55,658 bases of DNA from a virus (lineage: Duplodnaviria > Caudoviricetes): the IMG/VR virus record IMGVR_UViG_3300009304_000001, positions 1 to 55,658 of that record; one strand, written 5' to 3'. The notes beneath the pieces are model-generated. The model was not told the origin of the DNA and did no database searches. It was given only the letters and a program-made list of their open reading frames with translations. Numbering within the stretch: the first letter of the stretch is position 1; each line of letters starts with the position of its first letter. Positions 5,394 through 42,871 of the stretch are shown in pieces. A program made the translations under genes and the position numbers.

Positions 5394-6277
5394 TGAATGA
5401 TTACTTTAAAATATACGACATTAACTTTAATCTAGTTCCTCTGCCTGTAGATGATTTAGGATACGGTCTGGTTGGACTGGACCTATTTGTATCTTCAATC
5501 GGTCAAGAAATCACCGAACATAGTATACCAGGACTACCCGGAAACATTATTACAGGCGTTCGGGATGATGAACGGGATATAAGTATTAGCGCCATGATAC
5601 AAGCTATGAACCCCACAGACTATCGGTTGAAACGTGACCGGGTATTTTCTTTTTTTAGATCCTTGGGCTCTTTTTACGTTACGGAATCGCAACAAGGAAA
5701 TAAATTAATGAAAGTTAGGGTTATCGATAAATACAGAGCCGACCGACCATTGGGTTTTGGTACAGTCGCGGAAGTTGATATCCCATTAAAAATAGACGGT
5801 CAGCCTTACTGGGTGAGCCGTTTTAAAACATTGGATTTACACAACAACAATGGCATACCCGCAAACGGAAATTGGTCTTTCGGCATGGGAATCGAAGTAT
5901 CCCCCGATGAATTAATTTACGAATATGAAAATGTAAGTGAGTTCAATATTTTTAATGCAGGTATTCTTTTAAAGACAATACAAGAAAAGGACAATTGCCA
6001 AATAAAGATTAAAATAAAACAAAGCGTTACTAGTTTTATGCTATACGATGCCACAGGCTCTAAGTGGGAATATAATGCGGTAAAAGAAAGTGGCTGGGCT
6101 TTAAAGACTGGCGACGTAATAATATTTAATGGCCACGATATCCGGTTAAATAAAACTACGATAATGGAGAGAACAAATCGTTACTATCCTCTCATAAAAG
6201 AAGGCAGCAATAATTTTGAAATCGAGGGACTAACTCAATTTAAAGTAATTTTTGATTTCAGATTTAAGTATTACTAA
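5393..6277 (+). CDS. Distal tail protein (Dit), type A
   Basis: Directly after TMP; C-terminal LIKEGSNNFEI...FDFRFKYY typical of Dit. Confidence 0.75.
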   Translation: MNDYFKIYDINFNLVPLPVDDLGYGLVGLDLFVSSIGQEITEHSIPGLPGNIITGVRDDERDISISAMIQAMNPTDYRLKRDRVFSFFRSLGSFYVTESQQGNKLMKVRVIDKYRADRPLGFGTVAEVDIPLKIDGQPYWVSRFKTLDLHNNNGIPANGNWSFGMGIEVSPDELIYEYENVSEFNIFNAGILLKTIQEKDNCQIKIKIKQSVTSFMLYDATGSKWEYNAVKESGWALKTGDVIIFNGHDIRLNKTTIMERTNRYYPLIKEGSNNFEIEGLTQFKVIFDFRFKYY

Positions 6278-6290
6278 AGGGAGCGATGAT

Positions 6291-8858
6291 GTGAAGAGGC
6301 ATTTAATAGAAGGACCTGTAAATGATGAGATGTTGAACAAGCAAAATAGTAATTTCAAGGTGTTGTTTGATGAAGGGATTAGATCAGGATTAGATTCTAA
6401 AGATGCAAGAGAGAAAGCATTGCAGGCCCTTGTAGAATCAACGCTTGCAAAAGAAAACGCATTAGTAGCCAAGGGATTGGTTCAACAAATTATAGACGGG
6501 TCAATTGACACTAGCGCATTGAACACGAATATAGAACAAAGAATGAACGATTTAGAGGGGGAATATGCGCCGAAGTTAACGGAAGTTACTCAACGGTTGG
6601 AGGAAACTGCGAAAAAACTATTTTATTTTGAAGCACCAAAACAGCCAAGTTTTAACGCATTGGATGAAGGGCATATTTGGGACGGTATAAACAGAACGCA
6701 AGACGATTTCAGAAAAGAAATGATTGATCCTTTAGTTGCGACAGCGCCAGATTATGTTACGAAAACATTATTGGGTAAGGATACAAGCGGAACTTATGAT
6801 ATACACGAATATATTTTCGAGCCAGAAGAATATGAGCAGACTATCCTTCTAACAAGTGGGGTGCATGGCAGGGAAACCGTCCCAGTTTATTCTATATATC
6901 GTCTTATGCACTACCTAATCAATGAACCAGAAGTACACCCAGACATTCAGTATCTTAGAGAAAAGGTAAGGATATGTATTATTCCTGTTGTGAATCCGTG
7001 GGGTGGTTCTAATATAGTACCAGGAACAATATACAAAGTTTATGGAAACGTAAACGGTTCTAGTATAACAAGAAATGTACCGTTTGAGTGGGAACTTGCA
7101 GGAACGGCGAGGGGTACAGTTCCTTTTTCGGAAAATGAAGCTAAAATCATGTGGGATTGGATAACTAAATACAAGAATGTAGCTAGTTTTTATATGGATT
7201 TTCACACGAATTGGAGTTATTACGGCAGTCTGCCAGAGAAAGATGTGTGGGTTAACTTAACATGGCAAGACGAGTATGCAGCACCGGTCATTAAGCAAGT
7301 TAATTCCTATCTAAATAGCCGAGTTACAGAAAAGTACGGTAGAAGTTCCGTAGATGATACAGGAGTTACTACGGGAGTGGGTATGCGGTATTATGCCCAA
7401 TTTGGATGCAACATACCCGCCGCAACGATGGAGTATTGCGAAACCCGATTCGGGGGCAGGTTTGGCGGTTCGGTTGATATAACCGAACACCTAACACAAG
7501 CAGTTAACTTTATTTCATCGTTGTCCAAAGCGAATTTGTTAGAGTTAAGGAAGGAACGGGACAGTAATTTCAAGGCATTAAAATACATTAGTACTGAGAT
7601 CATGAACTTCCATTCCTTGAATGAGGATATAAACGCAGCTGATTTTAGCGATGAAGTACATGAAAAATACGATAGGTATGTAAGCACTCCTCCTAAAGGT
7701 ATTGAGGTCACGGAAAGTGTTTTGAGCAAAGATACATCCAACACATATGATATAAAATCATATACGTTCATGCCAGAAAGATATGAGAAGACACTGTTTT
7801 TGTATGCAGGACTATATAGTAGGTATGGTTTTAAAGAGGTCTTTGTTTTACAAAATTTGATTAAATACATTTACACATCAAAAGATTACGTCGCAGAACA
7901 GTTGAGGAATTATTATAGAATTATTGTGATTCCCGTAGTGGACGTAAGTAGGTTCAACAAGAGTATATCCAGCTATGATAATAACGGGATTCCAGATAGG
8001 GATGTTATTGCTTCGGATATAAGGATATTGACGAACGACTTTGATGCATTCACATTAAGCGAATCACGTGCGATAAAGAAGATAGTTGAAGCCAACGTGA
8101 TAGATACAAGTATTGATATAGGTTCACATTTTGGTTTAGCTGCTGCTTATGCGATAGATGAGTTAAATAACATTTATACCACTTTGTATAATGCTTCTAA
8201 GTATGCAGAAAAAATATTCAACCCTAGTGTTACAATTGGGGAATTCGGACTGATTTCAGACTTCACAGGTTACACCTCAAATATTCATTTGAAATACATG
8301 AGCAAGCACGTTATAGAGCCCGTATCTTTCCGAGTAGGAAGAGTACCTTTTGATAGGGGTACGCCGATATATAACGAAAACTTGGTTGAAATGCGAAGGT
8401 TTGCAGAGATTTTAATTAACTCATTATACCAGTACATGACCACTAATTTCAAAAAGACTTACAGTATCGAACCCGTAAACTTGGCAAAGCCTTTTTATAA
8501 CGATGATTGGGACTTGCATGCAAACGCCATTCTTTTAGAAGACAAGGAAACCCTAAAATTCACGCCTACTGCGTCATACCAAGAAAACGATCTGATCATC
8601 GACGTGGAAGAAGGCATGGAGTATTATGCTAGTTTTGACAAGATCATCCCTAACTCACCACAAGTTGCGTTGTTTGCTTTCAGGGTAACAGCGGATGGGA
8701 TTGTGGGTTCAAGCGTTGGGAATACAACAGGTAAAGAAATGATGTTTACTATACCAATCGGATACCCAAAAATAAAGTTGTCAGTTAGAAGTGTAGCTGC
8801 ACCATACGGAGAATCGTTCATTATAAAGGACATTAAATTATATAAAGTTAATAAGTAA
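6291..8858 (+). CDS. Putative virion adsorption protein with M14 zinc-carboxypeptidase-like domain plus a degenerate second copy
   Basis: N-terminal coiled coil; TSGVHGRE (HxxE), IIPVVNPWG, SENEAK, MDFHT, ATMEY; second domain lacks HxxE; GTG start after AAGGGAG. Confidence 0.7.
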   Translation: MKRHLIEGPVNDEMLNKQNSNFKVLFDEGIRSGLDSKDAREKALQALVESTLAKENALVAKGLVQQIIDGSIDTSALNTNIEQRMNDLEGEYAPKLTEVTQRLEETAKKLFYFEAPKQPSFNALDEGHIWDGINRTQDDFRKEMIDPLVATAPDYVTKTLLGKDTSGTYDIHEYIFEPEEYEQTILLTSGVHGRETVPVYSIYRLMHYLINEPEVHPDIQYLREKVRICIIPVVNPWGGSNIVPGTIYKVYGNVNGSSITRNVPFEWELAGTARGTVPFSENEAKIMWDWITKYKNVASFYMDFHTNWSYYGSLPEKDVWVNLTWQDEYAAPVIKQVNSYLNSRVTEKYGRSSVDDTGVTTGVGMRYYAQFGCNIPAATMEYCETRFGGRFGGSVDITEHLTQAVNFISSLSKANLLELRKERDSNFKALKYISTEIMNFHSLNEDINAADFSDEVHEKYDRYVSTPPKGIEVTESVLSKDTSNTYDIKSYTFMPERYEKTLFLYAGLYSRYGFKEVFVLQNLIKYIYTSKDYVAEQLRNYYRIIVIPVVDVSRFNKSISSYDNNGIPDRDVIASDIRILTNDFDAFTLSESRAIKKIVEANVIDTSIDIGSHFGLAAAYAIDELNNIYTTLYNASKYAEKIFNPSVTIGEFGLISDFTGYTSNIHLKYMSKHVIEPVSFRVGRVPFDRGTPIYNENLVEMRRFAEILINSLYQYMTTNFKKTYSIEPVNLAKPFYNDDWDLHANAILLEDKETLKFTPTASYQENDLIIDVEEGMEYYASFDKIIPNSPQVALFAFRVTADGIVGSSVGNTTGKEMMFTIPIGYPKIKLSVRSVAAPYGESFIIKDIKLYKVNK

Positions 8859-10754: not shown

Positions 10755-12902
10755 GTGAACACAATAAACGGTCAAACATCAGTGTTTTTACTAGATTTAA
10801 AAGGTAAAGAATATCCAGCCATTGCAGAAGTAAACAGAAAGAAACGAGTGAACGGACAGCGTGAAATTACGTTGTCTTTTTTGTTTGATGAAATAAACAA
10901 GGACTTTCTGCACGATATTGAATACGGTTGGAAAATACTGTTCAAAGGTGAATGGTACACGATTATAAACCCGTCTTATGCACTCGATGGAGATAAGTTT
11001 TCCGTCGGTGTGGATGCTGTCCTATCATTTTTTGTTGATATGAACGGATATTATCTACAAGACGACGTAGAGGGGGTGTCGAAAACCCCGGCATCTTATT
11101 TTACAGCTTTATTCCAAGGGACTGGTTATAGCTATATACTAGCCGATAATCTAGCCGCCAACACATTAAGCTATCAAGCCAATCAAAGTAAAACAGAACG
11201 CTTTCTATACGGAGTTGATCGGTTTAAAGGTGAGTATGTAATCAGAGGTAAAGTCGCTTATATGCACGGGTTAATTGGCTCTGATAAGGATGTTATATTG
11301 CATGAGGATTTGAACATACAAGACGTATCGGTTGAAGTGGACGGGAGCGGATTTCATACCTGGGCAAAAGGATTCGGGAATAAAGACGATAGCGAAGAAG
11401 ACTCTGACTACAAGCTAGAAACAGATTATTTCATACCAGCATTAGTCGAAAAGTATGGTTGGATTGAAGGTCCTGCAATTAGGGATGGGTCTTATAAGGA
11501 TGAAACTAATTTAAAGGATGCAATTAAAAAACAAATAGAAAACAGCGCACCGACATCTACCACAGTCACCGCTGTTGATTTAAGCAATAACGGTTATCCA
11601 GAAATGCAGTTTGAAGAGGGCGACCGAGTATGGCTGTACGTCACTCTGCTGAAACAGAATCAACAAGTAAGAGTAGTAGAGATTGACGAGACTTTCGATT
11701 GGGAAGGTAATGTTATTGCTGTCCAATATACCATCGGAAACGAGGGTATTGCCACACGATATAAAACACAGCAGTATGATACGTTAAAAGATTTTCAAGA
11801 TATTTCATCTGGTCGGAAAACGCTAGAATTCAACTGGTTGCCAGAAGCTATAAAACGAGCAGCTGAAATAATAAACGGCAATATTGATAGTCTATTCCGT
11901 TATGGCGCGGGTGAGATCATCGGCATCAACACGGGTAATCCTAATGGCTATATGCGGTTTAATACGGATGGTATAGGGTTTAGTCGTGACGGTGGCAAGA
12001 CTTACCGAACAGCAATCACATATGAGGGTATTGTGGCTGATGCGATAGTTACAGGGACCTTGCGAAGCATACTCATTGAAGCCGTGGAGATATACGGTAG
12101 CTACATAAACGGCGGGACTATTGAAGGTACGAATATTAACGGTTCAACATTTACATCCAAGAAAACCGACAATGACTATATGACGATAAGCGGTTCGAGG
12201 TTGTTATCTTATGGCGTTCATAATCGTCAGTGGATGGGAGAAACCGGAAATAACATAGTTAAAATATTGATTGAACACGGGCAAGTCAGGGCGCGGAACG
12301 ATGATAAAAACTGGTCGCTGTACTTTAATGATTATGGATTATCCACATTCTCAGATGGTGATGGTGCAGGTTTTGATGGCGATGCATCGGGTGCGCTTGA
12401 ATTCCATAGTACAAGATATTCAGGCGGTGCATACCGAGGGCTAACAATTATGTCGGCTGGACGTTTAGCGCTTGAGTCTTCTAATCCAACAGGTAGCAGG
12501 ATCTATATAAACCCTAGGGGTGCGAGTGTTAGAATATCTGACATTGATGATAATTATTACAACATCGCAGCAGCAGGATTTAATCAGTCGAGCCGTACCA
12601 CTCAAAAAAGAAATATTAAAGTTCTAGAAGACGATGCATTAGGGATTATTAACTCTTTAAATATTAAAGAATACAAACGATTAACGAGTGGAGAATCTAC
12701 CGAACTAGATCAGTGGCAAGTAGGTATTTTAGTCGAAGAAGCACCCTATCAACTATTGGCTGATGGCGATAGCGTAGATGTCTACTCATATTTAAACTAT
12801 GTAGCTCGTGGACTACAACAACATTATGGTATAACCGCTATCCACGATGAAAGAATACAGGATTTAGAAATCAGATTAAATAAGTTAGAGGGAGTGGCTT
12901 AA
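10755..12902 (+). CDS. Tal / tail spike with prophage-tail N-terminus and C-terminal S74-like intramolecular chaperone
   Basis: RKKRVNGQREITLSF; GIGFSRDGGKTYRTAIT; QSSRTTQKRNIKVL...VGILVEE. Confidence 0.8.
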   Translation: MNTINGQTSVFLLDLKGKEYPAIAEVNRKKRVNGQREITLSFLFDEINKDFLHDIEYGWKILFKGEWYTIINPSYALDGDKFSVGVDAVLSFFVDMNGYYLQDDVEGVSKTPASYFTALFQGTGYSYILADNLAANTLSYQANQSKTERFLYGVDRFKGEYVIRGKVAYMHGLIGSDKDVILHEDLNIQDVSVEVDGSGFHTWAKGFGNKDDSEEDSDYKLETDYFIPALVEKYGWIEGPAIRDGSYKDETNLKDAIKKQIENSAPTSTTVTAVDLSNNGYPEMQFEEGDRVWLYVTLLKQNQQVRVVEIDETFDWEGNVIAVQYTIGNEGIATRYKTQQYDTLKDFQDISSGRKTLEFNWLPEAIKRAAEIINGNIDSLFRYGAGEIIGINTGNPNGYMRFNTDGIGFSRDGGKTYRTAITYEGIVADAIVTGTLRSILIEAVEIYGSYINGGTIEGTNINGSTFTSKKTDNDYMTISGSRLLSYGVHNRQWMGETGNNIVKILIEHGQVRARNDDKNWSLYFNDYGLSTFSDGDGAGFDGDASGALEFHSTRYSGGAYRGLTIMSAGRLALESSNPTGSRIYINPRGASVRISDIDDNYYNIAAAGFNQSSRTTQKRNIKVLEDDALGIINSLNIKEYKRLTSGESTELDQWQVGILVEEAPYQLLADGDSVDVYSYLNYVARGLQQHYGITAIHDERIQDLEIRLNKLEGVA

Positions 12903-29130: not shown

Positions 29131-32100
29131 GTGACAGACTACGAATTAAAACTAGCGAATGCATTAAGCGAAGAAATAAGGGAAATGGAATTATTCTTGC
29201 GTGCTGCCGAAAGAGTGTGGACGGGAAAGATAGTGAAGGAAACAACCAAGTATATACTCAAATCCCATCCGTACGGCGCGTTAAAGGAAAGGGAATTTGA
29301 GTTAGATACAGATTTGAAAAATAAGGTGTTGGAATTATTAAGGGATGAATTGTTGGAGAAGAAATACCAGTTAAAGAATATATAGGGTGGGTGAAATAAT
29401 GACTGACCAAATGACATTGGATGAACTAATGATGCCAGAGTTGATACTTTGCTCATTGAGCGAGGGGTATCACTGGATAAGGATCACTCAGGGATGTACA
29501 CCAGTTGAATTTATAGAGTGTGTCCAATTTAAAATGGATGGATACGATTACATTTATGAAAACACGCCATTGAAAGATGAAATCATTTCAGCGTTTGAAG
29601 GAACGGTTAGATCCATACCGTTTGCTTTCGGACAACAGTAAATATGTGCAGCATTACTTAAAAATATTTAAGGAGTGAGGAGTATGTCATATTTTACGAT
29701 TCCAATCAATGCAGGGTCAGAAGAAGAGCGTGCCAGTAGAATCGCTGAAAATGAATCGAGGGGTTTCGAATTAGTAAAGACTTTTGAGCGCGAAAAAGAA
29801 CATAAGAGTTGGGGGAATCACGGATATCGAGTCGGTAATGAAGCGGTCTTCAAATATGCAGGAAGTGATCTGTCTAAACAATATTGTGCAATCATGCGGC
29901 GTTGCAATATCCAGTACTTGAAACAGAAGGCGGCGCAATCAGTCGAGACTGTAAGTAGTTGACACAAAAGGTTGAATAGAAAAGGGAGGACGATCAAGTG
30001 AAGGACGACATACAGTTTCTGAAAGATTTGCAGGACGAATTAAAAACACAGGACACAGACCACCAAGCCGCTCCCCGATACTGGGGGATTATGAATTACA
30101 GAATTGTACCCGGCAATGAGGATTACGATGATTGCCATATATCTTATTTCTATAACGATGGCGACCATACGGAATTTGTTAGTGTCGAAAACTTGAAGGA
30201 ATTTATAGCGGATTACTTCTTAGATGAAATCCAAGAATATTTGGATGTTGAAGGTATTGCCGACCTAAAATGGCTATTGAACGAAGATGGAACAACTCTA
30301 GTAGATTTGTGGGAATTCGTCACCGATAACATGAACGAAAGCGGACACTTCAATGAATGTCCAGTTACGGAAGAAAGTTTTATCGTGACTAGTGCTATGT
30401 TTCTTACAAAGGCAGAAGCTAAAAAACACCTTGAATTAAATCACTACCACTATTCGTCAAAGGCTCACACCTATGCAATGACAGCGTGGAGAGCGCCAAA
30501 GGTCGAGAGGTTGTTGGGGTTATTAGAATCGTTTGATTGGGTTGCGGTCGAAAAACTAATGAACGACTGTTAAACAGTACGAAGAAGGGGTGGGAGCGAT
30601 TAACAAGAAAGAATTTAAAGTCACATTAAAGTGGTTATGGTATTGGCCAGTAATTCGATACCATATGAAGAAAACCCTTAAAATCAATCCTAAGCATCAA
30701 GCTATCCTTAATTACCACTACGAAAAAGTTCAACATTATCACGAAAAAGTAACTAAGCACTAATTCAACAGTACGAAGATAAGGTTGACCAATCAGACGA
30801 ATTAATTACAAGTTCGATTATAAGAACGAAGTCCTTTAAAAGAAGGGTGTGAAGAGTATTGAAGAAAGGCGATCAATTAATCTATCAACCCGGCATATGG
30901 CAGCAACTAGTCACCGTGGAGCACATCGGGAAGGAATCCGGAGCAACTTATATTCAGACGAGCGGTAACTCCGGATACTCTTCGGAATTTAAGGTGCCGA
31001 CAGCAGAAGACTTAATCAGGCATCAAGAGATAGAGGTTACACGCTCGGTTATTGCAGAAATAAAAGTTTGTTACCGTTGCCAAATAGAAATCGATCAAGG
31101 TTGGATTATAGAAAGGTCGATAGAAGATGTTAATGGTTATTGCTCATATGGATGTGGAACTAAAGCAGGAATATCTTCAACAGCCTTTATCAGAAATGCC
31201 TATTATTCGACCATAAGGCGGAACGTATTATAAAAAGACTTAATAAATCAATAACTTAACACTAATCAACAAGTATTTAGTCTATTAAAATACTTACTTA
31301 TGAAAGGGTTGGTATAGAGTGCCGGATGAAAAGGGCTTTGGTATTGAATATTACACGCATAAAGAAAAACAACGGGCATTGGACGAAGCCGCAATGACGG
31401 ATGCAGAAAGAATTGCAACGATTAAGCAATATGTAGAAGTATCACTAATGAACAATATACACCCAATATTAAATCAGGAAGAACTAATATATCTACTCGA
31501 TCAAGCAGGCGACACTAAGTTGAGAACAGATGTAGATATAGCCTTACGGAACTTTAGGAAGGGTCGTACTAACCAAGGAATAACCATACTAAGCAAAGCG
31601 ATTGAGTAGTCATTGGAATATCAAGGGGGCGAAGTTTGGTGGAAAGTAAACTTGGACAACTAGATCGGATAAAGGTGAACGCTTCTGTAGGTACTCAAGA
31701 ATTTAAGTGGGCAACTATAGAAAGCGTAGATGGATTAAGGGAAGGTGACTTTCTCTGGTTAATCGAACAAGCGGAACGCAAGCGATCCCTAGAAATAGAA
31801 AGGCAGGATAAACGATTGGCAAGTAAAGTTAAATCGACGTTATCGAAAGAGACGGAAGAAAAAAACACGCAACTAGAAGACAAGTTGAATTACGTTAAAA
31901 AACTAGTTGAATCGAATAGGACCGGTCACGCAATCAAGTTCGATTTAAAAATGAGTTTAAGGGGGATGCAGAATGACAACTGATTTATTGAAATCCATGA
32001 TAGCGCACTACAAAGAAACAGGGTCCAGAGTCGACGAAGTCCTTTTTCAAGAGGTAATGAAAGTCGTTGGGCAGGTGAAGGAACTGGATGATGCGGCATA

Positions 32101-32654
32101 CGGATTGAGTGAAACGTTGCGACAGGAGCTAGGTCACAGCGTGAAATTAAGTGGGCGGATTGAATCGGCGGAAGCTGTAATAAACTTCTATGCGAACCCA
32201 ACGATTTATGACCTACAGAGTGGCAAAGGCGGAACGTTGTTCGTTGAAATTGAAAGAGACAAAGGACGTAGAGCACGTACTTATCTAGGGAGGGAGAACA
32301 GTGAAGACAAAAAGACTAAAGGTGCTGCTCGAAATAGATGAACTGAACAAAGAGCGGTGTGAAGCGTGTATCGAATCAGATGCTAAGGGCTCTGATTGTG
32401 AATGTGATGCCGCCGAATCGATACGTAAATTAGGCGATAAGCTATTGAGTTATACAAAGCCAAGAAACGAACAGGAATGGAAGCTGTTAAATGAATTAAA
32501 GTTTGAAGATATGACAACGGATCACTATGTGAAGATAAGAGAAGCAGGAATAAAAGATGTGGCTATGCGTGAGAAGTTAGGTGTAACTGTAGCAATGCTT
32601 TATAACTGGAAAAAAGATAACGGTCTAATAGCGAAAAGGAGTGTCGGTGTATGA
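29131..32654 (+). other. Cluster of small hypothetical early/middle genes (29131, 29387, 29675, 29998, 30859, 31319, 31636, 31973, 32301)
   Basis: Co-oriented ORFs with RBSs and coupled stops/starts; no family recognised confidently. Confidence 0.6.
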
Positions 32655-33259
32655 ATATAGCAAAAATGGTTTTACTGCAGAAGGATCTTGACGAAGTGAT
32701 AAACAAGAATCACCCGATTGGATTAAACGAAAATAGAACGGCCAATAAGATTACAGCATTAGTAGTGGAGTTGGCGGAGTTTGCAAATGAAGCTAGGTTC
32801 TTTAAGTACTGGAGCGAAGACACGGAGCCAAGAACGGAAGTCAGACATTACGCTAGAAATTCAGGAAAGTACCTACCAAACTATATAACTACAAATCCGA
32901 TGCTTGAAGAATACGTTGATAGTGTTCATTTCTTTTTATCAGTTGCAATTGATAAGGGATGGGAGAAAGCGTTGTATGTACCAGAAGAGAATTTGATTAA
33001 GTTAGATGAAAAGGGCTTTCCGGGCGGAATTACAGAAGCGTATAACGGTGTAATTTACAACTTGATGAAATCTCAATACGAAGGCAATGCAAAATACAAA
33101 GGTGAACACTACAGATCATCAGAAAACTTCTTTAACGAGGCATGGTTCCTGTTTATGGCCATAGGTCAAGTAGGTTACGGATTTACGGAAGAGGACATTG
33201 AGGCGGCGTACATCCTTAAAAATGAAGAGAATCATTCTAGACAAAATAACAACTACTAG
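32651..33259 (+). CDS. Dimeric (all-alpha) dUTPase
   Basis: ALVVELAEFANE..FFKYWS, EEYVDSVHFFLS, KNEENHSRQ. Confidence 0.85.
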   Translation: MNIAKMVLLQKDLDEVINKNHPIGLNENRTANKITALVVELAEFANEARFFKYWSEDTEPRTEVRHYARNSGKYLPNYITTNPMLEEYVDSVHFFLSVAIDKGWEKALYVPEENLIKLDEKGFPGGITEAYNGVIYNLMKSQYEGNAKYKGEHYRSSENFFNEAWFLFMAIGQVGYGFTEEDIEAAYILKNEENHSRQNNNY

Positions 33260-33567
33260 GGGGATTGGATATGGTGACTATAAAAGAAGAAAAGGTGTGT
33301 ATCGAATGCAAGAAAGATCTAAATAGATATTGGGGCCGTAACTTCTGTAAGAACTGTCTTGGTGAACTATTAAATGCACAACGGCGTGAGGACGATGCAC
33401 GCGAGTTGCTGAAAAAGGAGAAACTATGAACAAAGAAGAACGGGACGAATTGATAGCAGTGCTGCTTATGTGGAGTAACTGGAATAAAGCGGCACTGGAA
33501 AGCTTGAGCAATCGAAAGTTACTGGAAGAATACGACCGATACAACAGAATGACTAAGGGGTGAAAGC

Positions 33568-33999
33568 GTGACGATCAATTCAAAGCCGGAGAAACTACGC
33601 AGAGGTACTGTTCAACACATAGAAGCAGAACTATATGATTATCACGATACGCTTAAAAGAATCAAAGAACGCCGTGACGAGTTACTACATGGATCACCTT
33701 CGGAGGAATTGGTAGGTGGCAGAAGTAATATACCATCTGACCCAACAGGTAGTGTCGTGTCCCAGCTAATGGCTGATAAGCAACTACAAGAATTAGAGCG
33801 TATAGCAGCAGCTGTTGAACATGTTTATAATATGTGCGATGAACAGCGTAGAAAGTTAATCCGCCTCAAGTATTGGACAAGGCCACAAACTAGATCATGG
33901 GAAGGCATAGCACAAGAGATTCCAACGAGTCGAGCAACTTCATTCCGATGGCGTGATGAAATCATTCAAGCGATTGGGGAAGTGTTGGGGTGGCGGTAA
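33568..33999 (+). CDS. rinA: RinA-family late transcriptional activator
   Basis: HIEAELYDY, SDPTGSVV, LIRLKYW...WEGIAQEI...FRWRDEII. Confidence 0.8.
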   Translation: MTINSKPEKLRRGTVQHIEAELYDYHDTLKRIKERRDELLHGSPSEELVGGRSNIPSDPTGSVVSQLMADKQLQELERIAAAVEHVYNMCDEQRRKLIRLKYWTRPQTRSWEGIAQEIPTSRATSFRWRDEIIQAIGEVLGWR

Positions 34000-34032
34000 G
34001 TAGTTGACACAAAATGTGAAGGAGGAAGTAAT

Positions 34033-34338
34033 TTGAAGCTAAATAATAGTTACACAAATAGAGGTTTCGGTCTTATCGAATTTGTAGATAGGTATGGCGA
34101 CAAGTGTAGTATTCAAAAGTCCTCGCTTGCAACAGAAGATGCAATTTGGTTCGGAATTGATGATGCAAGCCCGAAGATTATGGCATCTAAAACAAAGGAA
34201 GGTGGAAATGGATGGGTTCCATATGTAATACCTAAAGATGTTTTATTTTCGACAAGAATGCATCTGACGCAAGAGCAGGTAAAAGAATTGTTGCCGATAC
34301 TTCAAGAGTTCGCAAAAACAGGGGAGCTGCCAGATTAA
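34033..34338 (+). CDS. Conserved phage hypothetical protein
   Basis: RGFGLIEFVDRYGDKCSIQKSSLATEDAIWFG...RMHLTQEQV. Confidence 0.65.
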   Translation: MKLNNSYTNRGFGLIEFVDRYGDKCSIQKSSLATEDAIWFGIDDASPKIMASKTKEGGNGWVPYVIPKDVLFSTRMHLTQEQVKELLPILQEFAKTGELPD

Positions 34339-34400
34339 CGTTAATCAGCAGTACGATCAAGTAGCGTACTCAACATACAGGGAGAAGGGAGGTAGAAAAT

Positions 34401-34502
34401 ATGTTCAAGTGCTTCTTTAAAGGTCACAATTGGTTCATAACAAGTAAGTGGTTAAGCGGTAATAGTTACATGTGTACCCGCTGCGGTAAAGAAAAGATTT
34501 GA
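34401..34502 (+). CDS. 33-aa Cys/His peptide (DUF1660-like)
   Basis: GGGAGG RBS; CFFKGHNW...CTRCGK. Confidence 0.55.
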   Translation: MFKCFFKGHNWFITSKWLSGNSYMCTRCGKEKI

Positions 34503-34535
34503 TCGAATATCCAGTTCTAATATAATAAGACTATT

Positions 34536-34570
34536 ATGAGACTTTCGACGTGCCTAAATGGGTTATGGTG
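34536..34570 (+). promoter_or_regulatory. Putative RinA-activated late promoter
   Basis: TGAGACTTT element followed by TATGGT -10-like box, the pattern usually seen downstream of rinA. Confidence 0.5.
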
Positions 34571-34613
34571 ATAACGTGGTAGTAAATCAACAGAGCGTTA
34601 CCACAAGAGGCGG

Positions 34614-35180
34614 CGTAGATACGTTGCAAAGGTTGCGGTACATACCGATTGACAACCGACAAAGCAAGGATGCACATAAAAAGCGGCGTAGGTTAGCCGG
34701 CATCAAAAATACAAAGTAAGTTTATGACTAGAAGACGGTGGCCCGTTGTACAGGCGTGGGAGTTTGTGCAACGAACTGTCTTGTTCACAAGGCATACGCA
34801 GTCGCATCGGTTAATCACAGTTAAGATTGACTACATTACTATGGTAGCGGCGCGATAGTCTCGATACGAAGGAGCCGATTACAACGGGTGTGGAAGCCCA
34901 GCGTGAAAGACCTCTTAATCTAAACGACATCACTGATCTGATGCGGTAAAAATCGGAAAGTAGTAATGCTATTACGGGTAGGGCCTGTGGATACGCGGAT
35001 AATACTTTCCGGTTATTGTTTATGTAAGAAGTCAGCCTGTAAAGTCTAGGAGTAATCGAGGTTATGGGCTGAGTTGTTATATAAAATACAGGTACATAAA
35101 GGTGGTGGGTCATTCTTGAAGTCTCGTGTAAACGTCAATAGGCGATATGCCGGAGGGGAAAGGTGATCCATACATCTACG
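34614..35180 (+). ncRNA. Large structured ncRNA (~570 nt), ROOL/GOLLD-like candidate
   Basis: No credible ORF; nested long-range helices 34614-20/35174-80, 34697-703/35147-153, 34742-50/34880-88, 34954-62/35003-11, 35019-26/35093-100. Confidence 0.75.
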
Positions 35181-35236
35181 AACTATCGTTTAAATAGTGA
35201 GCCGAATCCTGTATCATTGAATCAAATGGTATAGGA

Positions 35237-35749
35237 GTGATTTTTATTAAACGGTTAATGATTATTTTATTAGGTGTTATGTTGTTGTCGGCATGCGGGG
35301 ATAACGAATACGAAAAAGAATTAAAGGAAGCAGAAAAAGGATTAGAGGAATCTAAAGCGGAGTCAGAAAGAATCTCAGAACAAATAGGAGTAACAGAGGA
35401 TGATCCCGTGGATGAATCGATTAGCATATCAGCGGAAGAAGTTGCTGAACTTATAGCACATGAAGCTCTAGGCGAAGGTGATACCATAACAGATGTAATT
35501 ATTTACGATGGAGAAATCAAAGCGGTTATAGAAATATCAGATGATGCTATCATTAGCGATAAAAGTCTTCTTGCTGAATCAATATACTCTCGTGCAGGGG
35601 ACGCTCTTCTTGAACATGAAGGTTGGGATGTGCTGACGGTAGAGTTTGTGGATGTCGGTGAAGTATCTATGCAGCGCAACGAAAAGGAATCAAACGAATA
35701 TGGAATGGATTATTTCCCGCTTGAAAAGATAATAGGTCAACTGGAATAA
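35237..35749 (+). CDS. Acidic lipoprotein moron
   Basis: Signal peptide with lipobox LLSAC; terminator at ~35759-35788. Confidence 0.75.
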   Translation: MIFIKRLMIILLGVMLLSACGDNEYEKELKEAEKGLEESKAESERISEQIGVTEDDPVDESISISAEEVAELIAHEALGEGDTITDVIIYDGEIKAVIEISDDAIISDKSLLAESIYSRAGDALLEHEGWDVLTVEFVDVGEVSMQRNEKESNEYGMDYFPLEKIIGQLE

Positions 35750-35792
35750 TAATCTATTAGACACTTACTTAATTGTAGGTGTCTTTTTATTA

Positions 35793-36197
35793 TTGGAAAA
35801 GGAGATGAACGATATGGAAATCAACCGCATTGAGCATAGTTGTATGAGGTGCCAAGCAAGATTTACTTTAGATGAACAAAACTGCGTGGATGGAATGAAC
35901 TGTCCAATATGTGGAGGTCCCATAAGAATTACAGGTTTTGAAACTGAAACGTTAATCGTTGACGGTGAACCGATTAAGGAACCAGCATTGCTTACGATCG
36001 AATTAGAAAGTGAAACATCGGTACCAAAAGTATTCTATAAAGGCGAAGAGATAACTGATAAGGTAAGTGTTAGCTTTGATTGGGAAACTGATACAGATGT
36101 TATGGGTGGATTATCTTATGCCATTGAGCATCGCGAGAAAGGTTCATACCCAGTATCGAACAGGATAGAGCGCAGAGTTAAAGGGCATTCGTTTTAA
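35793..36197 (+). CDS. Hypothetical protein with Zn ribbon
   Basis: CMRC...CPICGG; VPKVFYKGEEI. Confidence 0.6.
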   Translation: MEKEMNDMEINRIEHSCMRCQARFTLDEQNCVDGMNCPICGGPIRITGFETETLIVDGEPIKEPALLTIELESETSVPKVFYKGEEITDKVSVSFDWETDTDVMGGLSYAIEHREKGSYPVSNRIERRVKGHSF

Positions 36198-36218
36198 TTA
36201 AGGTAGGGGGTATACACA

Positions 36219-36611
36219 TTGGATAACTTCACATGCAACATATGTGCAACAGACTTAACAACCGAATCGATTCAAATAGAAAAAGTAAATGAGATTGATG
36301 TTGCTTATGTTGTTTGTCATGAGTGCGATAACCGTTTCAACTTAATGTTTGATAGTCGTGAAACTTTAAGAATCAAAAAGAAAATCAAAAAGGTAAAAGA
36401 AATTGAAAACTATCTGCAATTGGTTTTGTATCGAGAGATGATGATTGTAGAGGATGACTACTACAAGCAAGAGTATGACAGCCTATCACGAGAAGAGAAG
36501 GACTTAATCGGTGGCTATCAAAGTAATGTTGATAAGCAAAAGATTAAAGAGTACAACAAGATAATTAAAGAGCGGCGATATAATTTTAAAGATCTAACGG
36601 AATTATTGTAA
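36219..36611 (+). CDS. Hypothetical Zn-ribbon protein
   Basis: CNIC...CHEC. Confidence 0.6.
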   Translation: MDNFTCNICATDLTTESIQIEKVNEIDVAYVVCHECDNRFNLMFDSRETLRIKKKIKKVKEIENYLQLVLYREMMIVEDDYYKQEYDSLSREEKDLIGGYQSNVDKQKIKEYNKIIKERRYNFKDLTELL

Positions 36612-36926
36612 ATGTTTTATAAAACAAAACGATGGACCAGCAAACGATTAGTTATCCTACGGCGTGATGAGTACCTATGCAGAGAGTGCAAGCGGTTCGG
36701 CAAGACGACGCAAGCCAACACAGTTCATCATGTGCTACCGCTTGAACAGCACCCAGAGTACAGGTTGACCAACGCTAACCTACTGAGCCTGTGCGGTACG
36801 TGTCACAACAAGATGCACGATAGATTGACCAATGAATTAACAGATACAGGTACGGCATGGGTGGAGCGTGTGGGATTACAGAAGGTATCCCCCCCTCCTA
36901 AAAACGATTTTTTTATAAAAACATAG
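36612..36926 (+). CDS. Terminase-associated HNH endonuclease
   Basis: RRDEYLCREC...VHHV...NLLSLCGTCHNKMH directly upstream of terS. Confidence 0.9.
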   Translation: MFYKTKRWTSKRLVILRRDEYLCRECKRFGKTTQANTVHHVLPLEQHPEYRLTNANLLSLCGTCHNKMHDRLTNELTDTGTAWVERVGLQKVSPPPKNDFFIKT

Positions 36927-36970
36927 ACCGGAGAGTGGAGACTCTTCCAATAGTGCGGGTCTCCGGAAAA
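36885..36970. other. Probable cos packaging region
   Basis: C-run plus CCGGAGA...TCTCCGG inverted repeat between HNH and terS in an HK97-like cos-type phage; exact cut site not determined. Confidence 0.4.
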
Positions 36971-36991
36971 CTTTTTTGAGGTGGTGAAAAC

Positions 36992-37342
36992 ATGACAAGA
37001 CGAATAACGTCGCAAGAAACTATTAAGCGAAGAACGATTAGAGACATGAAAGATTTAGGGGTTCATAAGCCACAGTACAATAGACTTATTGATATTTATG
37101 CAGGCTTGATTCATCAGTATTTAATTGCCGTTGCCGACTTCGAAGATAGTGATTTTGCATACGAAACCGAAACGGCTGCAGGCAATCCAAAGAAGTCGGG
37201 AATCGTCAGCACGATGGAAAACTTGCGAAAAGACATACTCCAGTATTCTGATCGTTTATGTTTGAACCCGAAGAGTTTTGGAGACCGAAAAAGTGAAGAC
37301 GGGAATACATCCTCTCTTGCGGATATATTGAGGAATTCTTGA
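36992..37342 (+). CDS. terS: Terminase small subunit (P27 family)
   Basis: LRKDILQYSDRLCLNPKS; upstream of terL. Confidence 0.85.
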   Translation: MTRRITSQETIKRRTIRDMKDLGVHKPQYNRLIDIYAGLIHQYLIAVADFEDSDFAYETETAAGNPKKSGIVSTMENLRKDILQYSDRLCLNPKSFGDRKSEDGNTSSLADILRNS

Positions 37343-39093
37343 CTAAAGCTTTTAAAAACTATGACGCAGTAATGGAGTATGCAAATAGCGTTGTGGAAAA
37401 ACGTAAGTTAGCAAACAGGGAAACTATTCAGATGTGCCAAAGATTTTTGGACGACTTGAAGAATCCCATTTATGAATTCAAACCAAAAGATGCGGAGTTC
37501 GTTATTCGCATTATCGAAAAAACATTTGTTCATGATAAAGGAGAACGGCTTGATGGAACGCCATTGCTAGGACAACCTTTCATATTAGAACCTTGGCAGA
37601 AATTTATTATCTATAATTTGCTAGGTTTTTTTCATAAAGATACAATCATGCGGCGCTTCAAAGAGGCGTTTATTTTTTTGCCAAGAAAGAACGGTAAAAC
37701 AAGATTTGTCGCTGCTCTTTCGTGGGCCTTAGCATTGTTGGAAAGGCGTTCCGGTTCAACTATATATATTGTTGGTGCAGCACTTAGACAAGCCAGGCAA
37801 TCATTTGAGTTTATTAATTTTAATTTGAAGAAGATGGGCGAAGCGGATAATTTTAGAGTTAGGGACAACAACCAAGAATCTTCCATTGTGGGCGACTTGG
37901 GCGATGGTTCATTACACATTGAAGCACTAGCAGCTAACCCCGATAAACAAGATAGTTTGAACTGTAACATTGCCATAGCCGATGAATTGCACTCATATAA
38001 ACGTGCCACTCAGTACAACGTAATTAAAGAAGCCATGAAAGCTTATACAAATAAGTTAATGATTGGCATAACGACAGCTGGAGATAATCAAAACAGCTTT
38101 TGTTATCATCGTTTGGTTTATTGCCAAAAGATATTAGACCGAACAGTAACGGATGAACAGTACTTTGTGTTTATTGCAAAGGCGGACCAAGATCAAGAGG
38201 GAAATGTAGATTATACTTGTGCGAAAGAACACGAAAAGGCGAATCCTAACTATGGAATAACGATAAGACCGGATGACATTATGAACGATGCACTACAGGC
38301 ACAAAATGATCCGCAACAACGAAAAGACTTCCTTGCTAAATCATTAGATATTTATACAAGCGCAATGAACGCCTACTTTAATATAGACGAGTTCAGAATG
38401 TCTGATATAGCTGTTGAAAATGAATTAGGTTTAGCAGGGTTAAAGCTGAATGAAAAATTAAAGAAATTAGCTAGATTGAAAATTGATTGGTATGGCGGTG
38501 CGGATTTATCAAAGCGGCATGATTTGACTGCCACTGCTTTATACGGCACTTATAAAGACATTGATATAGTTATCAGTCATGCATTTTTCCCAATCGTTGC
38601 AGCTACTGAAAAAGCAGATGATGACAACATTCCATTATTCGGTTGGAAGGATGACGGGTTTTTAACTATGGCTAACAATCCCGTAATTAGTTATCAAGAC
38701 GTTGTGAAATGGTTTATTAATATGCGGAAAGTCGGATTTAAAATCCATAGTACTGGCTTTGATAAGAAGTTTGGTCGTGAGTTCATCCTGGAAATGAAGA
38801 AGAACAACTTTAAGATTGAGGATGCGCCGCAATACTTCCACTTGAAATCAGAAGGTTTCAGACGTATTGAAACTAAGGCGAAAGAAAAGCGGTTTTACTA
38901 TCTAGGTTCAGAAGCATTTGAGTACTGTACGCAGAACGTAAGAGCGATTGAGCAGACAGACGATGCAATCAAGTATGAAAAAATATTAGATACGCAAAGA
39001 ATCGATGTATTTGATGCATCGGTTTTTTCTGCTATGCAAATGTTGAAAACGTTGGAAAAATCGAAGACTGCTAGGCAATGGTTGGATAGTTAG
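37339..39093 (+). CDS. terL: Terminase large subunit
   Basis: LEPWQKF, PRKNGKT, IADELH, ITTAG, GADLS. Confidence 0.95.
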   Translation: MTKAFKNYDAVMEYANSVVEKRKLANRETIQMCQRFLDDLKNPIYEFKPKDAEFVIRIIEKTFVHDKGERLDGTPLLGQPFILEPWQKFIIYNLLGFFHKDTIMRRFKEAFIFLPRKNGKTRFVAALSWALALLERRSGSTIYIVGAALRQARQSFEFINFNLKKMGEADNFRVRDNNQESSIVGDLGDGSLHIEALAANPDKQDSLNCNIAIADELHSYKRATQYNVIKEAMKAYTNKLMIGITTAGDNQNSFCYHRLVYCQKILDRTVTDEQYFVFIAKADQDQEGNVDYTCAKEHEKANPNYGITIRPDDIMNDALQAQNDPQQRKDFLAKSLDIYTSAMNAYFNIDEFRMSDIAVENELGLAGLKLNEKLKKLARLKIDWYGGADLSKRHDLTATALYGTYKDIDIVISHAFFPIVAATEKADDDNIPLFGWKDDGFLTMANNPVISYQDVVKWFINMRKVGFKIHSTGFDKKFGREFILEMKKNNFKIEDAPQYFHLKSEGFRRIETKAKEKRFYYLGSEAFEYCTQNVRAIEQTDDAIKYEKILDTQRIDVFDASVFSAMQMLKTLEKSKTARQWLDS

Positions 39094-39095
39094 GG

Positions 39096-39308
39096 GTGAG
39101 TGAATTGTGGAAGATTAGAAGATACCTAATTAAGAAGTTAGTAGGTAGGCAAACGATCGTCATGAATCTAACTTTGCTATCGAGAACAGAAGCATTCAAA
39201 ACAACGGATTTAGATTTATTGATTAGAGGTCACCATAAAAAGCATGTAATAGAAAATGTAACTATTAGAAATTCGGACAGAAGCGAGATGGAAGAGTTGA
39301 GCAGTTGA
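39096..39308 (+). CDS. Hypothetical protein between terL and portal
   Basis: 70-aa ORF filling the gap. Confidence 0.45.
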   Translation: MSELWKIRRYLIKKLVGRQTIVMNLTLLSRTEAFKTTDLDLLIRGHHKKHVIENVTIRNSDRSEMEELSS

Positions 39309-41185: not shown

Positions 41186-42354
41186 ATCCAGTATTAATTG
41201 GTGCAAAACTAAATTTAAAGCGTAAAGCTCTATCAACATTGGAGGAACGTATCGCAGAACTACTTATTAAGCGCGAAGAACTAGAAACATCTATTGAAGG
41301 TATCGAAACAGAGGACGACTTAACCGCTGTTGAAGCAAGCGTTACAGAAAACGATGATGCAATCAAAGAGGTGGAAGGTGAAAAGTCTACACTCGAAGAG
41401 GAAATCGTTGAGCTAGAGGGAGAACTTGAAGCATCGAACCGAAAAAAACCAAAAGCAGGGGGCAAACGAAATATGGCGAACCAAGTAGAAACGCGCGAAG
41501 CGATTAACGATTTTGTACGATCTAAAGGAAATATGCATGAACGAGCAGGATTCACGTCTGTTGAGGGTGGCGCACTGATTCCTGAGGAATTGCTACCGGC
41601 TAAAAACGAACTAGTTGATACGCTCGACTTAACTCAGTACGTTCGCAAAGTTCCAGTAAATAGCGGTTCCGGAAAGTATCCAGTAATCAGCAAGTCTAAT
41701 GGCAAGTTCGTATCTGTTGAAGAGTTAGCAGCTAACCCGGAGCTAGCACACCCAACATTTACAGAAGTTAACTATGACATTACAACTTACCGTGGTTATG
41801 TGCCTGTATCACAGGAAGTTATTGACGATGCAGACTATGACGTTACTGGAATGATCGCAGAAGATATTAAAGATCAAGAGCAAAATACGAAGAACGAACA
41901 GATTGCAGCTATCTTCAAGACAGCTACAGCTAAGGCAGTTACTGGACTAGACGGAATCATCACTATGTTTAACAAGGACTTCAAGCGTGTGTACAACACC
42001 CGTGCGTTTGTATCATCATCACTTTATAACGTGCTAGACCTAATGAAAGACAGAAATGGTCGCTACTTGCTACAGGACGACATCACAGTCGCATCGGGTA
42101 AACGTATCAAGGGTAAAGAAGTTGTGGTCCTTGATGATGAGGTTATCGGAACTAGTGAGGGTGAATTGGTTGGATTCTTTGGTGATGCTCATGAGTTTAT
42201 TACACTATTTGACCGCAAGCAAGCATCTGTTAAGTGGATTGATAACAATATTTATGGTCAATTACTAGCAGGATTTGTACGCTTTGACGTTAAATCAGTC
42301 GATAGCGCAGCAGGATTCTATGTCACGTTCACGGCAGATGTACCAGAACTTTAA
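41182..42354 (+). CDS. Major capsid protein, HK97 fold with delta domain
   Basis: Coiled-coil N-terminus; GGALIPEE, VSQEVIDDA, MKDRNGRYLLQ. Confidence 0.95.
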   Translation: MNPVLIGAKLNLKRKALSTLEERIAELLIKREELETSIEGIETEDDLTAVEASVTENDDAIKEVEGEKSTLEEEIVELEGELEASNRKKPKAGGKRNMANQVETREAINDFVRSKGNMHERAGFTSVEGGALIPEELLPAKNELVDTLDLTQYVRKVPVNSGSGKYPVISKSNGKFVSVEELAANPELAHPTFTEVNYDITTYRGYVPVSQEVIDDADYDVTGMIAEDIKDQEQNTKNEQIAAIFKTATAKAVTGLDGIITMFNKDFKRVYNTRAFVSSSLYNVLDLMKDRNGRYLLQDDITVASGKRIKGKEVVVLDDEVIGTSEGELVGFFGDAHEFITLFDRKQASVKWIDNNIYGQLLAGFVRFDVKSVDSAAGFYVTFTADVPEL

Positions 42355-42378
42355 TATAAACAGAAAGGAATGATAGTC

Positions 42379-42561
42379 ATGAAATACGAAGTCATTGAAA
42401 AATTCCGCGACACGCAGGATAAGAATCATATTTACGAAGTGGGAAAAAAGTATCCCCATAAAGGTAAGGTGAACAAGGAGCGTGCTGAAGAATTAGCGGG
42501 CACGTCCAATAAATATGGTCGTGCATTCATCAAAGAAGTTGATAGCGGTGGAGAAGAGTGA
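42379..42561 (+). CDS. Small head-associated protein
   Basis: YEVIEKFRD...YEVGKKYP; typical post-capsid gene. Confidence 0.6.
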   Translation: MKYEVIEKFRDTQDKNHIYEVGKKYPHKGKVNKERAEELAGTSNKYGRAFIKEVDSGGEE

Positions 42562-42871
42562 ATTTATTGCAACGGCATTAGAATTAACTAAAGCGCGTCT
42601 CGGAATTAGTACAACTATCCGGGATGCGCTTTTAAGTAATGCGGTTGAATCCGTTGTGGAAGAGTTGGAGGTCGAAAAGGGAATTGTCGTTAATTACGAT
42701 AGTTCTTTGCACCTCGATTTCGTTAAGGATTACGCAACGTGGCGTTATCAATCTGTTAATTCTACAGAAGTAATTCTTACTAATCACACGCTACCTATGC
42801 CACGTCACCTGCAATACAGGTTGCATAATTTGGTGATTAAAGAACACGTAAAGAGTGATGTCGATGTATAA
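42557..42871 (+). CDS. Head-tail connector (gp6-like)
   Basis: LELTKARLGIS...MPRHLQYRLHN. Confidence 0.75.
   Translation, partial: SEFIATALELTKARLGISTTIRDALLSNAVESVVEELEVEKGIVVNYDSSLHLDFVKDYATWRYQSVNSTEVILTNHTLPMPRHLQYRLHNLVIKEHVKSDVDV

Follow-up and report, generated by a model that had tools for sequence, protein, structure and literature searches.

The window analysed here is the complete IMG/VR virus record IMGVR_UViG_3300009304_000001 (55,658 nucleotides, nt), and the element of interest is a non-coding stretch on its + strand (34529-35236), a putative leader lying between a RinA-family regulator gene and a lipoprotein-like gene. The RinA-family late transcriptional regulator is encoded upstream on the same strand (33568-33999; TIGR01636, 77.8 bits against a cutoff of 31.9; phrog_36), and the packaging region follows downstream, also on the + strand, with an HNH gene (36612-36926), terS (36992-37342) and terL (37339-39093). 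The stretch is separated from HNH by three open reading frames (ORFs), namely the lipoprotein-like gene and two small ORFs. It thus occupies the place of a RinA-dependent late-promoter region, downstream of a RinA-family gene and upstream of packaging genes, and the late-operon setting named in an earlier annotation of this DNA (hereafter the original prediction) is borne out. At this locus we found, after the RinA gene, a non-coding stretch with a conserved 5′ box and a conserved, + strand-specific 3′ RNA structure, neither of which is in Rfam.

The same prediction had described the region as free of ORFs, which holds insofar as no Pfam-supported ORF is present; 17 ORFs of at least 20 amino acids (aa) do overlap it, including one of 100 aa on the − strand. 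A protein-coding explanation was considered for this ORF and for a 53-aa ORF on the + strand without a Pfam match, and was rejected, none of the 17 small ORFs being gene-like. Scans using two of the ORFs as proxies returned candidates from viral sequences (20 and 61 stretches) and from metagenomes (594), among which no relative was confirmed.

Long-range helices and local folding

In the original prediction the stretch was pictured as one ornate molecule of about 570 nt closed by long-range helices. Every complementary pair named there could be located in the sequence, namely CGTAGAT/ATCTACG at 34614-34620/35174-35180, CCGGCAT/ATGCCGG at 34697-34703/35147-35153, CCCGTTGTA/TACAACGGG at 34742-34750/34880-34888, CGGAAAGTA/TACTTTCCG at 34954-34962/35003-35011, TTTATGTA/TACATAAA at 35019-35026/35093-35100 and TCAGCCTGTAA/TTATGGGCTGA at 35032-35042/35062-35072. 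Judged against 300 dinucleotide-preserving shuffles of 34560-35190, the named long-range helices are at chance level. With a minimum length of 7 nt, maximal perfect helices number 11 in this region compared with 7.85 ± 2.77 after shuffling (55 of the 300 shuffles reach 11), and those that bridge over 100 nt number nine compared with 5.97 ± 2.53 (50 of 300 reach nine); with a minimum of 9 nt there are two compared with 0.56 (32 of 300 reach two). Several of the perfect helices are mutually exclusive, and the competitors that had gone unlisted include CGTTGCA/TGCAACG and ACATAAA/TTTATGT. The supposed closing helix CGTAGAT/ATCTACG was discounted because its 3′ half is already in use, 35174-35177 in the base of a hairpin designated H3 and 35178-35180 in a covarying mini-hairpin, both described below. 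With the helices at chance level and with relatives that keep the ends only, the single closed molecule was given up. The practical lesson is that perfect long-range complements of 7-9 nt are to be expected by chance in a stretch of 600 nt.

Folding beyond the level of shuffled sequences was nevertheless evident, the whole 661 nt giving z-scores (z) of −7.0 and −0.9 for the + and the − strand, respectively (20 shuffles each). Dissection of the stretch showed that this excess is local and confined to 34945-35240, the 5′ 420 nt being shuffle-like: the pieces 34530-34705 and 34700-34950 gave z-scores of −0.94 and −1.19 (34 and 25 of 200 shuffles, respectively, fold as well), compared with −6.64 for 34945-35095 and −4.03 for 35090-35240 (0 of 200 shuffles in either case). 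When the phage was tiled into 156 segments of 350 nt (15 shuffles each), the lowest value belonged to 35001-35350 (z −6.07), and the segments 34651-35000 (z −0.69) and 34301-34650 (z −0.12) were ordinary. Low values in the same tiling were also seen elsewhere in the phage, at 42351-42700 (−5.74), 1401-1750 (−4.89), 7351-7700 (−4.23) and 10851-11200 (−3.74).

On the grounds of its size and context, the stretch had originally been likened to ROOL, with a covariance-model search against Rfam as the check. ROOL averages 581 nt and is found in prophages, according to the part of the published description drawn on here (PMC5737381), and our stretch resembles ROOL and GOLLD as portrayed there in being several hundred nt long, non-coding and located in a Firmicutes-type prophage. 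Nothing beyond size and prophage setting speaks for a divergent ROOL or GOLLD RNA. A cmscan search with all 4227 families of Rfam 15 gave no match at the gathering score over the whole window and none at E ≤ 10 over 34300-35400, so neither ROOL nor GOLLD was recovered. Both RNAs often, if not obligatorily, occur near tRNA genes in prophages; here the prophage-type context is present, and ARAGORN detected no tRNA gene in the window. Unlike ROOL and GOLLD, the stretch has no conserved multistem core; multistem junctions are unsupported, and the relatives, of 345 and 450 nt, have the ends alone in common with it. Membership in either family is exceedingly improbable, and size together with prophage context is insufficient to call an RNA ROOL-like.

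The conserved 3′ module and its 16S complement

Seeding a search with an 18-mer of the conserved 3′ arm recovered two further leaders, one on a viral contig (L129) and one on a metagenome contig (L162), together with short pieces in L124, L128/L142 and L197. The 3′ module, which comprises H3, the mini-hairpin and UUAAAUAG, spans 35086-35204 on the + strand and is homologous in both leaders. L162 aligned over 35084-35197 (74.6% over 114 nt) and L129 over 35093-35317 (73.6% over 227 nt), the latter alignment taking in the 3′ module, the hairpin H4 behind it and the signal peptide of the lipoprotein-like gene, with the mature protein excluded.

H3 (35100-35177, + strand) carries in its 3′ arm the Shine-Dalgarno (SD)-like sequence AAGGUGAUCC (35160-35169), followed by AYACAUCU. 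A consensus fold of the three sequences gave H3 a lower stem with 11 pairs, nine of them present throughout, seven being invariant and two showing one-sided changes (G-U to A-U and U-G to C-G); the other two pairs were each broken in one of the three sequences, and the apical part varied in sequence and length. The mini-hairpin (35178-35189, + strand) follows directly and has four base pairs (bp). The window has ACGA/UCGU, L129 has ACCA/UGGU, and L162 and L124 both have CCGA/UCGG, so that at two of the four positions both partners differ with pairing retained (A-U to C-G and G-C to C-G). As regards covariation among homologs, another check named in the original prediction, the mini-hairpin thus holds two compensatory changes and most pairs of the lower H3 stem are kept, and the relatives share the ends of the stretch only.

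Within the SD-like sequence, AGGUGAUCC (35161-35169) is an exact 9-nt complement of GGAUCACCU at the 3′ end of 16S rRNA. The 16-nt 16S tail motif GGATCACCTCCTTTCT occurred in six, two and one copies in three well-assembled genomes of the Oceanobacillus family, the candidate hosts, with no control hits, and in L200 it stands at the 3′ end of a match to small-subunit rRNA. No family-supported ORF covers AGGUGAUCC, and on sequence inspection the 12 nt behind the motif contained no ATG, GTG or TTG at any of the five loci compared (the window, L129, L162, L124 and L128). In the same five loci the motif lies 45-85 nt upstream of the next gene start.

The two relatives also folded better than their shuffles, the 345-nt leader of L162 with a z-score of −4.69 (0 of 100 shuffles) and the leader of L129, of about 450 nt, with −3.9. 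A contrast between the strands was seen each time: the z-score of 35090-35240 rose to +0.60 on the − strand, L162 gave −4.60 on the + and −0.84 on the − strand, and L129 gave −3.30 and −1.56, respectively. Folding specific to the + strand in all three leaders points to RNA rather than DNA as the conserved entity. The piece 34945-35095, which holds two further hairpins (H1 and H2), retained a z-score of −3.11 on the − strand.

Parts of the 3′ arm were seen in another setting as well. An extended motif, GAGAAAGG-NN-AAGGTGATCCAYA, occurs at the very end of ORFs in the late regions of other prophages, the stop codon of the upstream ORF lying in the motif or just before it. The sites are L124:1496-1551, where a likely tape-measure gene follows, L128:7158-7197 on the − strand, which is identical in L142, and a site near 1480-1520 of L197. 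The extended motif may serve independently as an intercistronic signal.

The 5′ part, the central insert and the modular plan

Ahead of the stretch, a scan against the consensus, the only evidence for this site, identified a sigma-70-like promoter, TTGATC-16-TATAAT, with 10/12 matches at 34499-34526 on the + strand; the scan for promoter-like sites found none in L162, which has no counterpart of it. The conserved 5′ box (GACTATTATGAGACTTTCGA ... GTTATGGTGATA, 34529-34573, + strand) is unique in the window at 0 mismatches, aligns with L162 at 76% identity over 68 nt (34512-34578) and recurs in the G014 prophage (L178/L194), which shares the box only and has it about 930 nt after a RinA-like gene. 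Two opposite-strand ORFs were noted between that gene and the box (L194 5727-6453, + strand), and a triple direct repeat, three copies of CACATTAAAT, stands just upstream of the box (L194 around 5631-5665, − strand). The box is therefore present in three loci with RinA-family regulators (the window, L162 and L194), and L129, which has an ArpU-family regulator, lacks it. We regard it as a putative RinA-dependent late promoter or operator, or as the putative 5′ end of the transcript.

Two small hairpins follow the box on the + strand. P2 (GUGGUAG/UUACCAC, 34576-34604) has a pair probability of 0.88, and L162 has a hairpin at the equivalent place with a different best fold, leaving the correspondence ambiguous. 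P3 (34631-34657) contains the 10-mer CCGAUUGACA (34645-34654), which also lies in a hairpin of L162, enclosed there by a different helix (CAACUG/CAGUUG versus GGUUG/CAACC). The conservation of P3 as read by hand is suggestive only and not significant, since shuffled flanks equalled it in 353 of 2000 trials of a crude control. A two-sequence alignment of the window and L162 by MAFFT/RNAalifold misaligned P3 and was discarded. Behind P3 lies a lineage-specific insert of about 420 nt (34661-35083, + strand), for which no relative was detected in phage, viral, metagenome or genome searches, and which ends in the very stable hairpins H1 (34951-35014) and H2 (35020-35084), the two most stable hairpins of the stretch and unique to this phage. 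In place of this centre L162 has 49 nt, which form a strong intrinsic terminator of 13 pairs followed by TTCCTTT between its 5′ part and its 3′ module (L162:13542-13571).

At the other end, H4 (35207-35236, + strand) is a terminator-like hairpin of 12 bp that is conserved in L129 and whose 3′ arm contains the next gene's AGGAG; L162 is without H4, and its leader runs straight into the ribosome-binding site of a gene. Overlapping H4 is a promoter-like sequence, TTTAAA-17-TATCAT (35189-35217, + strand), which is likewise conserved in L129. The lipoprotein-like gene (35237-35749, + strand; signal ...LLSAC) gave weak matches to lipoprotein families over its N-terminus. Judging from spacing, its start is likely the ATT at 35246 (MKRL...LSAC), 8 nt after AGGAG, as also seems to be so in L129 (1873-1900); the GTG start given by the ORF finder would leave no gap behind the SD sequence. 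The lipoproteins of the window and L129 are alike in their first 25 residues only, that is, in the signal peptide. An intrinsic-terminator-like hairpin with a T run stands after the gene (35759-35784, + strand), with an equivalent in L129 (2468-2495).

Gene order in L162 is a RinA gene (59% identical to that of the window), a small ORF, the 345 non-coding nt, an 83-aa gene and HNH. In L129 it is an ArpU-family regulator (126 bits), a short tyrosine-recombinase-like ORF (182 aa, L129:828-1376) directly before the leader, a terminator, the non-coding leader and the lipoprotein gene. Comparison of these loci showed that the unit is modular, consisting of the 5′ box with RinA-family regulators (three loci), a variable body, the 3′ module (three loci) and H4 with the lipoprotein signal (two loci).

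Such an arrangement could in principle be one of DNA signals and spacer, with the 5′ box as RinA operator or late promoter, TTTAAA-17-TATCAT as the promoter of a lipoprotein moron (phage morons are promoter-gene-terminator cassettes inside late regions) and the rest as mosaic recombination filler with functionless hairpins. The presence of the box in the three RinA-family loci and its absence from the ArpU-type L129 agree with this, as do the conservation of the promoter-like site in the window and L129, a centre without relatives, and short 3′-arm pieces at the gene boundaries of unrelated late regions (L124, L128/L142 and L197), as for mosaic joints. DNA sites, on the other hand, predict neither the H3 pairing that is kept through G-U to A-U and U-G to C-G, nor folding on the + strand only, nor the two compensatory changes in the mini-hairpin, and the strong folding of H1 with H2 (z −6.64) also speaks against filler. 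We consider this explanation unlikely.

The same features may alternatively delimit a structured phage RNA that stands alone, acts in trans and represents a class not yet described, about 700 nt long from the sigma-70-like promoter at 34499-34526 to H4. The versions in L162 and L129, of about 345 and about 450 nt, would be shorter representatives of this class, and its conserved hairpin would show or hide the 16S complement, for example as a decoy for the 30S subunit. The near-consensus promoter and the terminator-like H4 bracket the stretch, its GC content is raised (0.46-0.47 compared with 0.38-0.41 in the flanks), the 3′ module shows both conservation and + strand specificity, each of the three versions surpasses its shuffles in folding, and none of the three has an Rfam family (the leaders of L162, L129 and L194 gave no match, and the only two sub-threshold hits, elsewhere in those loci, were attributed to chance). 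Such an RNA is difficult to reconcile with 5′ 420 nt that fold no better than shuffles, with long-range helices at chance level and with an unconserved middle ranging from 49 to about 420 nt. It also conflicts with L162, which has neither promoter-like site nor H4 and whose leader continues into a ribosome-binding site, and with H4 itself, which holds the ribosome-binding site of the next gene as it would in a leader. A stand-alone RNA is thus unlikely in our view. Quite unlikely is a more far-reaching proposal, an undescribed Bacillales phage RNA family between late regulator (RinA or ArpU) and packaging genes, to which the stretch and its two shorter relatives would belong and whose invariant hairpin would alternately hide and show the 9-nt 16S complement. 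In late infection such an RNA would affect ribosomes or RNA decay, serving as a decoy for 30S subunits or as a stabiliser that can be switched, with the variable body (49 to about 420 nt) tuning it.

With the stretch itself as query, blastn in its distant setting found no match in 50,697 phage records, nor did blastn (E ≤ 0.1) or nhmmer (E ≤ 1) in 90 loci collected through the neighbouring phrog_3849 protein (10) and through terL (80, viral); tblastx of 30000-39100 against those 90 loci returned nothing inside 34400-35800. Scanning of viral contigs with 20-mers gave two matches, both in unrelated coding DNA, and scanning with the 5′ box gave none. Four hits were obtained among 246 genomes of the Oceanobacillus family, one of them real (G049, 51 nt of the 3′ arm, E 1.5e-8), and nine hits of 21-41 nt among 401 genomes of the order (E 0.002-0.007) were read as chance. 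The downstream 170-aa protein as query yielded 28 candidates, none of which was confirmed. Against phages, the 3′ 157 nt gave one chance hit (E 0.1) and the L162 leader none.

A motif scan of metagenome contigs returned 26 stretches, two of which (L162 and L142) align beyond the seed, and a pattern search of 401 genomes of the class gave four hits compared with two control hits, the extended motif being present in L197 only. Run over 99 sources (1,048,059 bases), the covariance model R1 matched the window, L129 and L162, which are its training sequences, and in addition only part of L124. Near-identical fragments were detected in public sequencing runs, no RNA run being listed among them and the four examined being labelled soil, freshwater, bovine and air metagenomes; their contigs, of 151-249 nt, differ by one to three letters each and offer no useful natural variation. 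The occurrence of such fragments in these metagenomes shows that the phage or its host is widespread.

Further upstream on the + strand, the window encodes a nucleotide pyrophosphohydrolase (32651-33259) before the RinA-family gene and, after it, a protein of unknown function assigned to phrog_3849 (34033-34338), then a zinc-ribbon-like ORF of 33 aa (34401-34502). Among species-representative genomes, the closest relatives of terL are in prophages of Oceanobacillus arenosus (80%), an Amphibacillus metagenome-assembled genome (78%) and Halolactibacillus (72%). In several terL relatives (for example L085 and L036) a RinA-like gene directly precedes HNH, which marks the 2.6 kb between the two genes here as an insertion-prone slot. 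Many terL-related viral contigs (L012, L013, L014, L018, L021, L022, L023, L027, L028 and L031) begin 380-420 nt upstream of terL, which would be expected of a phage group with its cohesive ends immediately ahead of terS.

A proposed composite leader and its known counterparts

We favour a reading of 34529-35236 as the composite, non-coding and hairpin-rich 5′ leader of a RinA-dependent late or moron transcript, equipped with an SD-like stability or translation element, and give it about an even chance of being correct. The transcript would start just downstream of the RinA gene and precede the lipoprotein moron and the HNH, terS and terL genes of a temperate phage. Its first module would be the 5′ box, acting with RinA-family regulators as late promoter or operator, and its second the lineage-specific hairpin insert of about 420 nt. 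In the third, H3 is predicted to pair AGGUGAUCC, which has no start codon behind it, with the covarying 4-bp hairpin next; in the fourth, H4 would hide the ribosome-binding site of the lipoprotein gene and so limit its translation, or else terminate read-through into it. The 3′ module would act in cis and post-transcriptionally on the downstream message, and a cis role in stability or translation is favoured because of the placement of the motif 45-85 nt before the next gene start in the five loci. Once H3 was opened or cut, a 30S subunit could dock on the SD-like sequence, H3 gating the access, and the docked subunit would protect the message from 5′-to-3′ decay, as the STAB-SD element does in cry3A mRNA.

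Several points weigh against this reading. The SD-like sequence is paired inside H3 in all three leaders, and a STAB-SD site must be free for the 30S subunit. L124 and L128 have the 3′ arm only and no hairpin (z +0.16 and −0.09), and there the motif is unpaired and lies between late genes, not in a leader. The known relatives are three full and three partial, so that the covariation comes from very few events, and the central 420 nt or so, including H1 and H2, are unconserved and left unexplained by a leader model. Transcription of the leader, with its start and its end, is predicted from sequence. The conserved blocks could be DNA signals, for instance the 5′ box an operator, and the TTTAAA-17-TATCAT site that L129 and the window have kept could function as a DNA promoter overlapping the 3′ module. 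A small frame begins at a conserved TTG and ends at the TGA in AGGTGATCC; it stays open for 16 codons in the leader of the window (35116-35166) and for 15 codons in those of L129 and L162, with an aligned gap of 3 nt between the frames and an SD-like AAAGGUGG 10 nt before the TTG. It could be coincidence or a leader peptide, and the open frame agrees better with translation of such a peptide than with an element that is RNA only. The strong terminator inside the L162 leader, finally, suggests attenuation.

In an attenuation or antitermination leader, a short RNA would be stopped unless the late regulator or a ribosome let the polymerase through, as in the late leader of lambda, or a leader peptide of 15-16 codons would control the structures. 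Besides the L162 terminator, the terminator-like H4 in the window and L129 and the frame that is open in three leaders behind an SD-like sequence are consistent with this mechanism. A terminator scan, however, found none inside the leader of the window before H4, and the peptides of the three leaders are dissimilar; the probability of three open frames arising by chance is only about 0.02 by a hand estimate. RinA, moreover, is described as a DNA-binding activator that acts upstream of terS in the part of the RinA study used here (PMC3152322). We hold attenuation to be rather improbable.

As a composite leader, the stretch belongs to a known kind, that of structured leaders with SD-like elements; it is a rare and largely lineage-specific case with a small 3′ module outside Rfam. 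Its likeness to morons lies in what has been inserted in the interval from the late regulator to HNH, namely promoter-like sites, a single lipoprotein gene and a terminator (34499-35784), and it differs from them in a leader that is unusually long and structured and is in part conserved independently of the mature protein.

The setting further resembles the RinA late-promoter region of the staphylococcal phages phi11 and 80alpha, where a RinA-family gene lies directly upstream and a conserved non-coding region precedes the packaging genes (PMC3152322). As stated there, RinA is an activator that binds DNA upstream of terS and depends on sequence located over 155 bp ahead of the mapped start, which in phi11 is located 23 bp before terS, leaving almost no leader (PMC3152322). 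Unlike in phi11, 660-700 non-coding nt and three extra ORFs lie here between the box and HNH/terS.

The closest counterpart of the 3′ module is the STAB-SD of Bacillus thuringiensis cry3A, an SD-like sequence in a leader of 558 nt that initiates no translation, binds the 30S subunit and stops RNase J1, as reported in the sections of the cry3A work on which we rely (PMC4113751). The likeness, as far as those sections describe STAB-SD (PMC4113751), lies in an SD-like 16S complement within a long untranslated leader in Bacillales, placed tens of nt before the real ribosome-binding site and with no start codon behind it; in the window, AGGUGAUCC is such a 16S-complementary sequence in a putative 5′ untranslated region. 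In contrast to STAB-SD, the motif of the window is paired in a conserved hairpin that is followed by a covarying mini-hairpin, and it matches a more 3′-terminal stretch of the 16S tail, as AGGUGAUCC and not as GAAAGGAGG. Should the 3′ module operate in the proposed way, it would represent a phage-borne, structurally gated version of the Bacillus SD-like mRNA stabilisers, and would provide a simple way into the question of how temperate phages of Firmicutes control the amount of their first late or moron transcripts.

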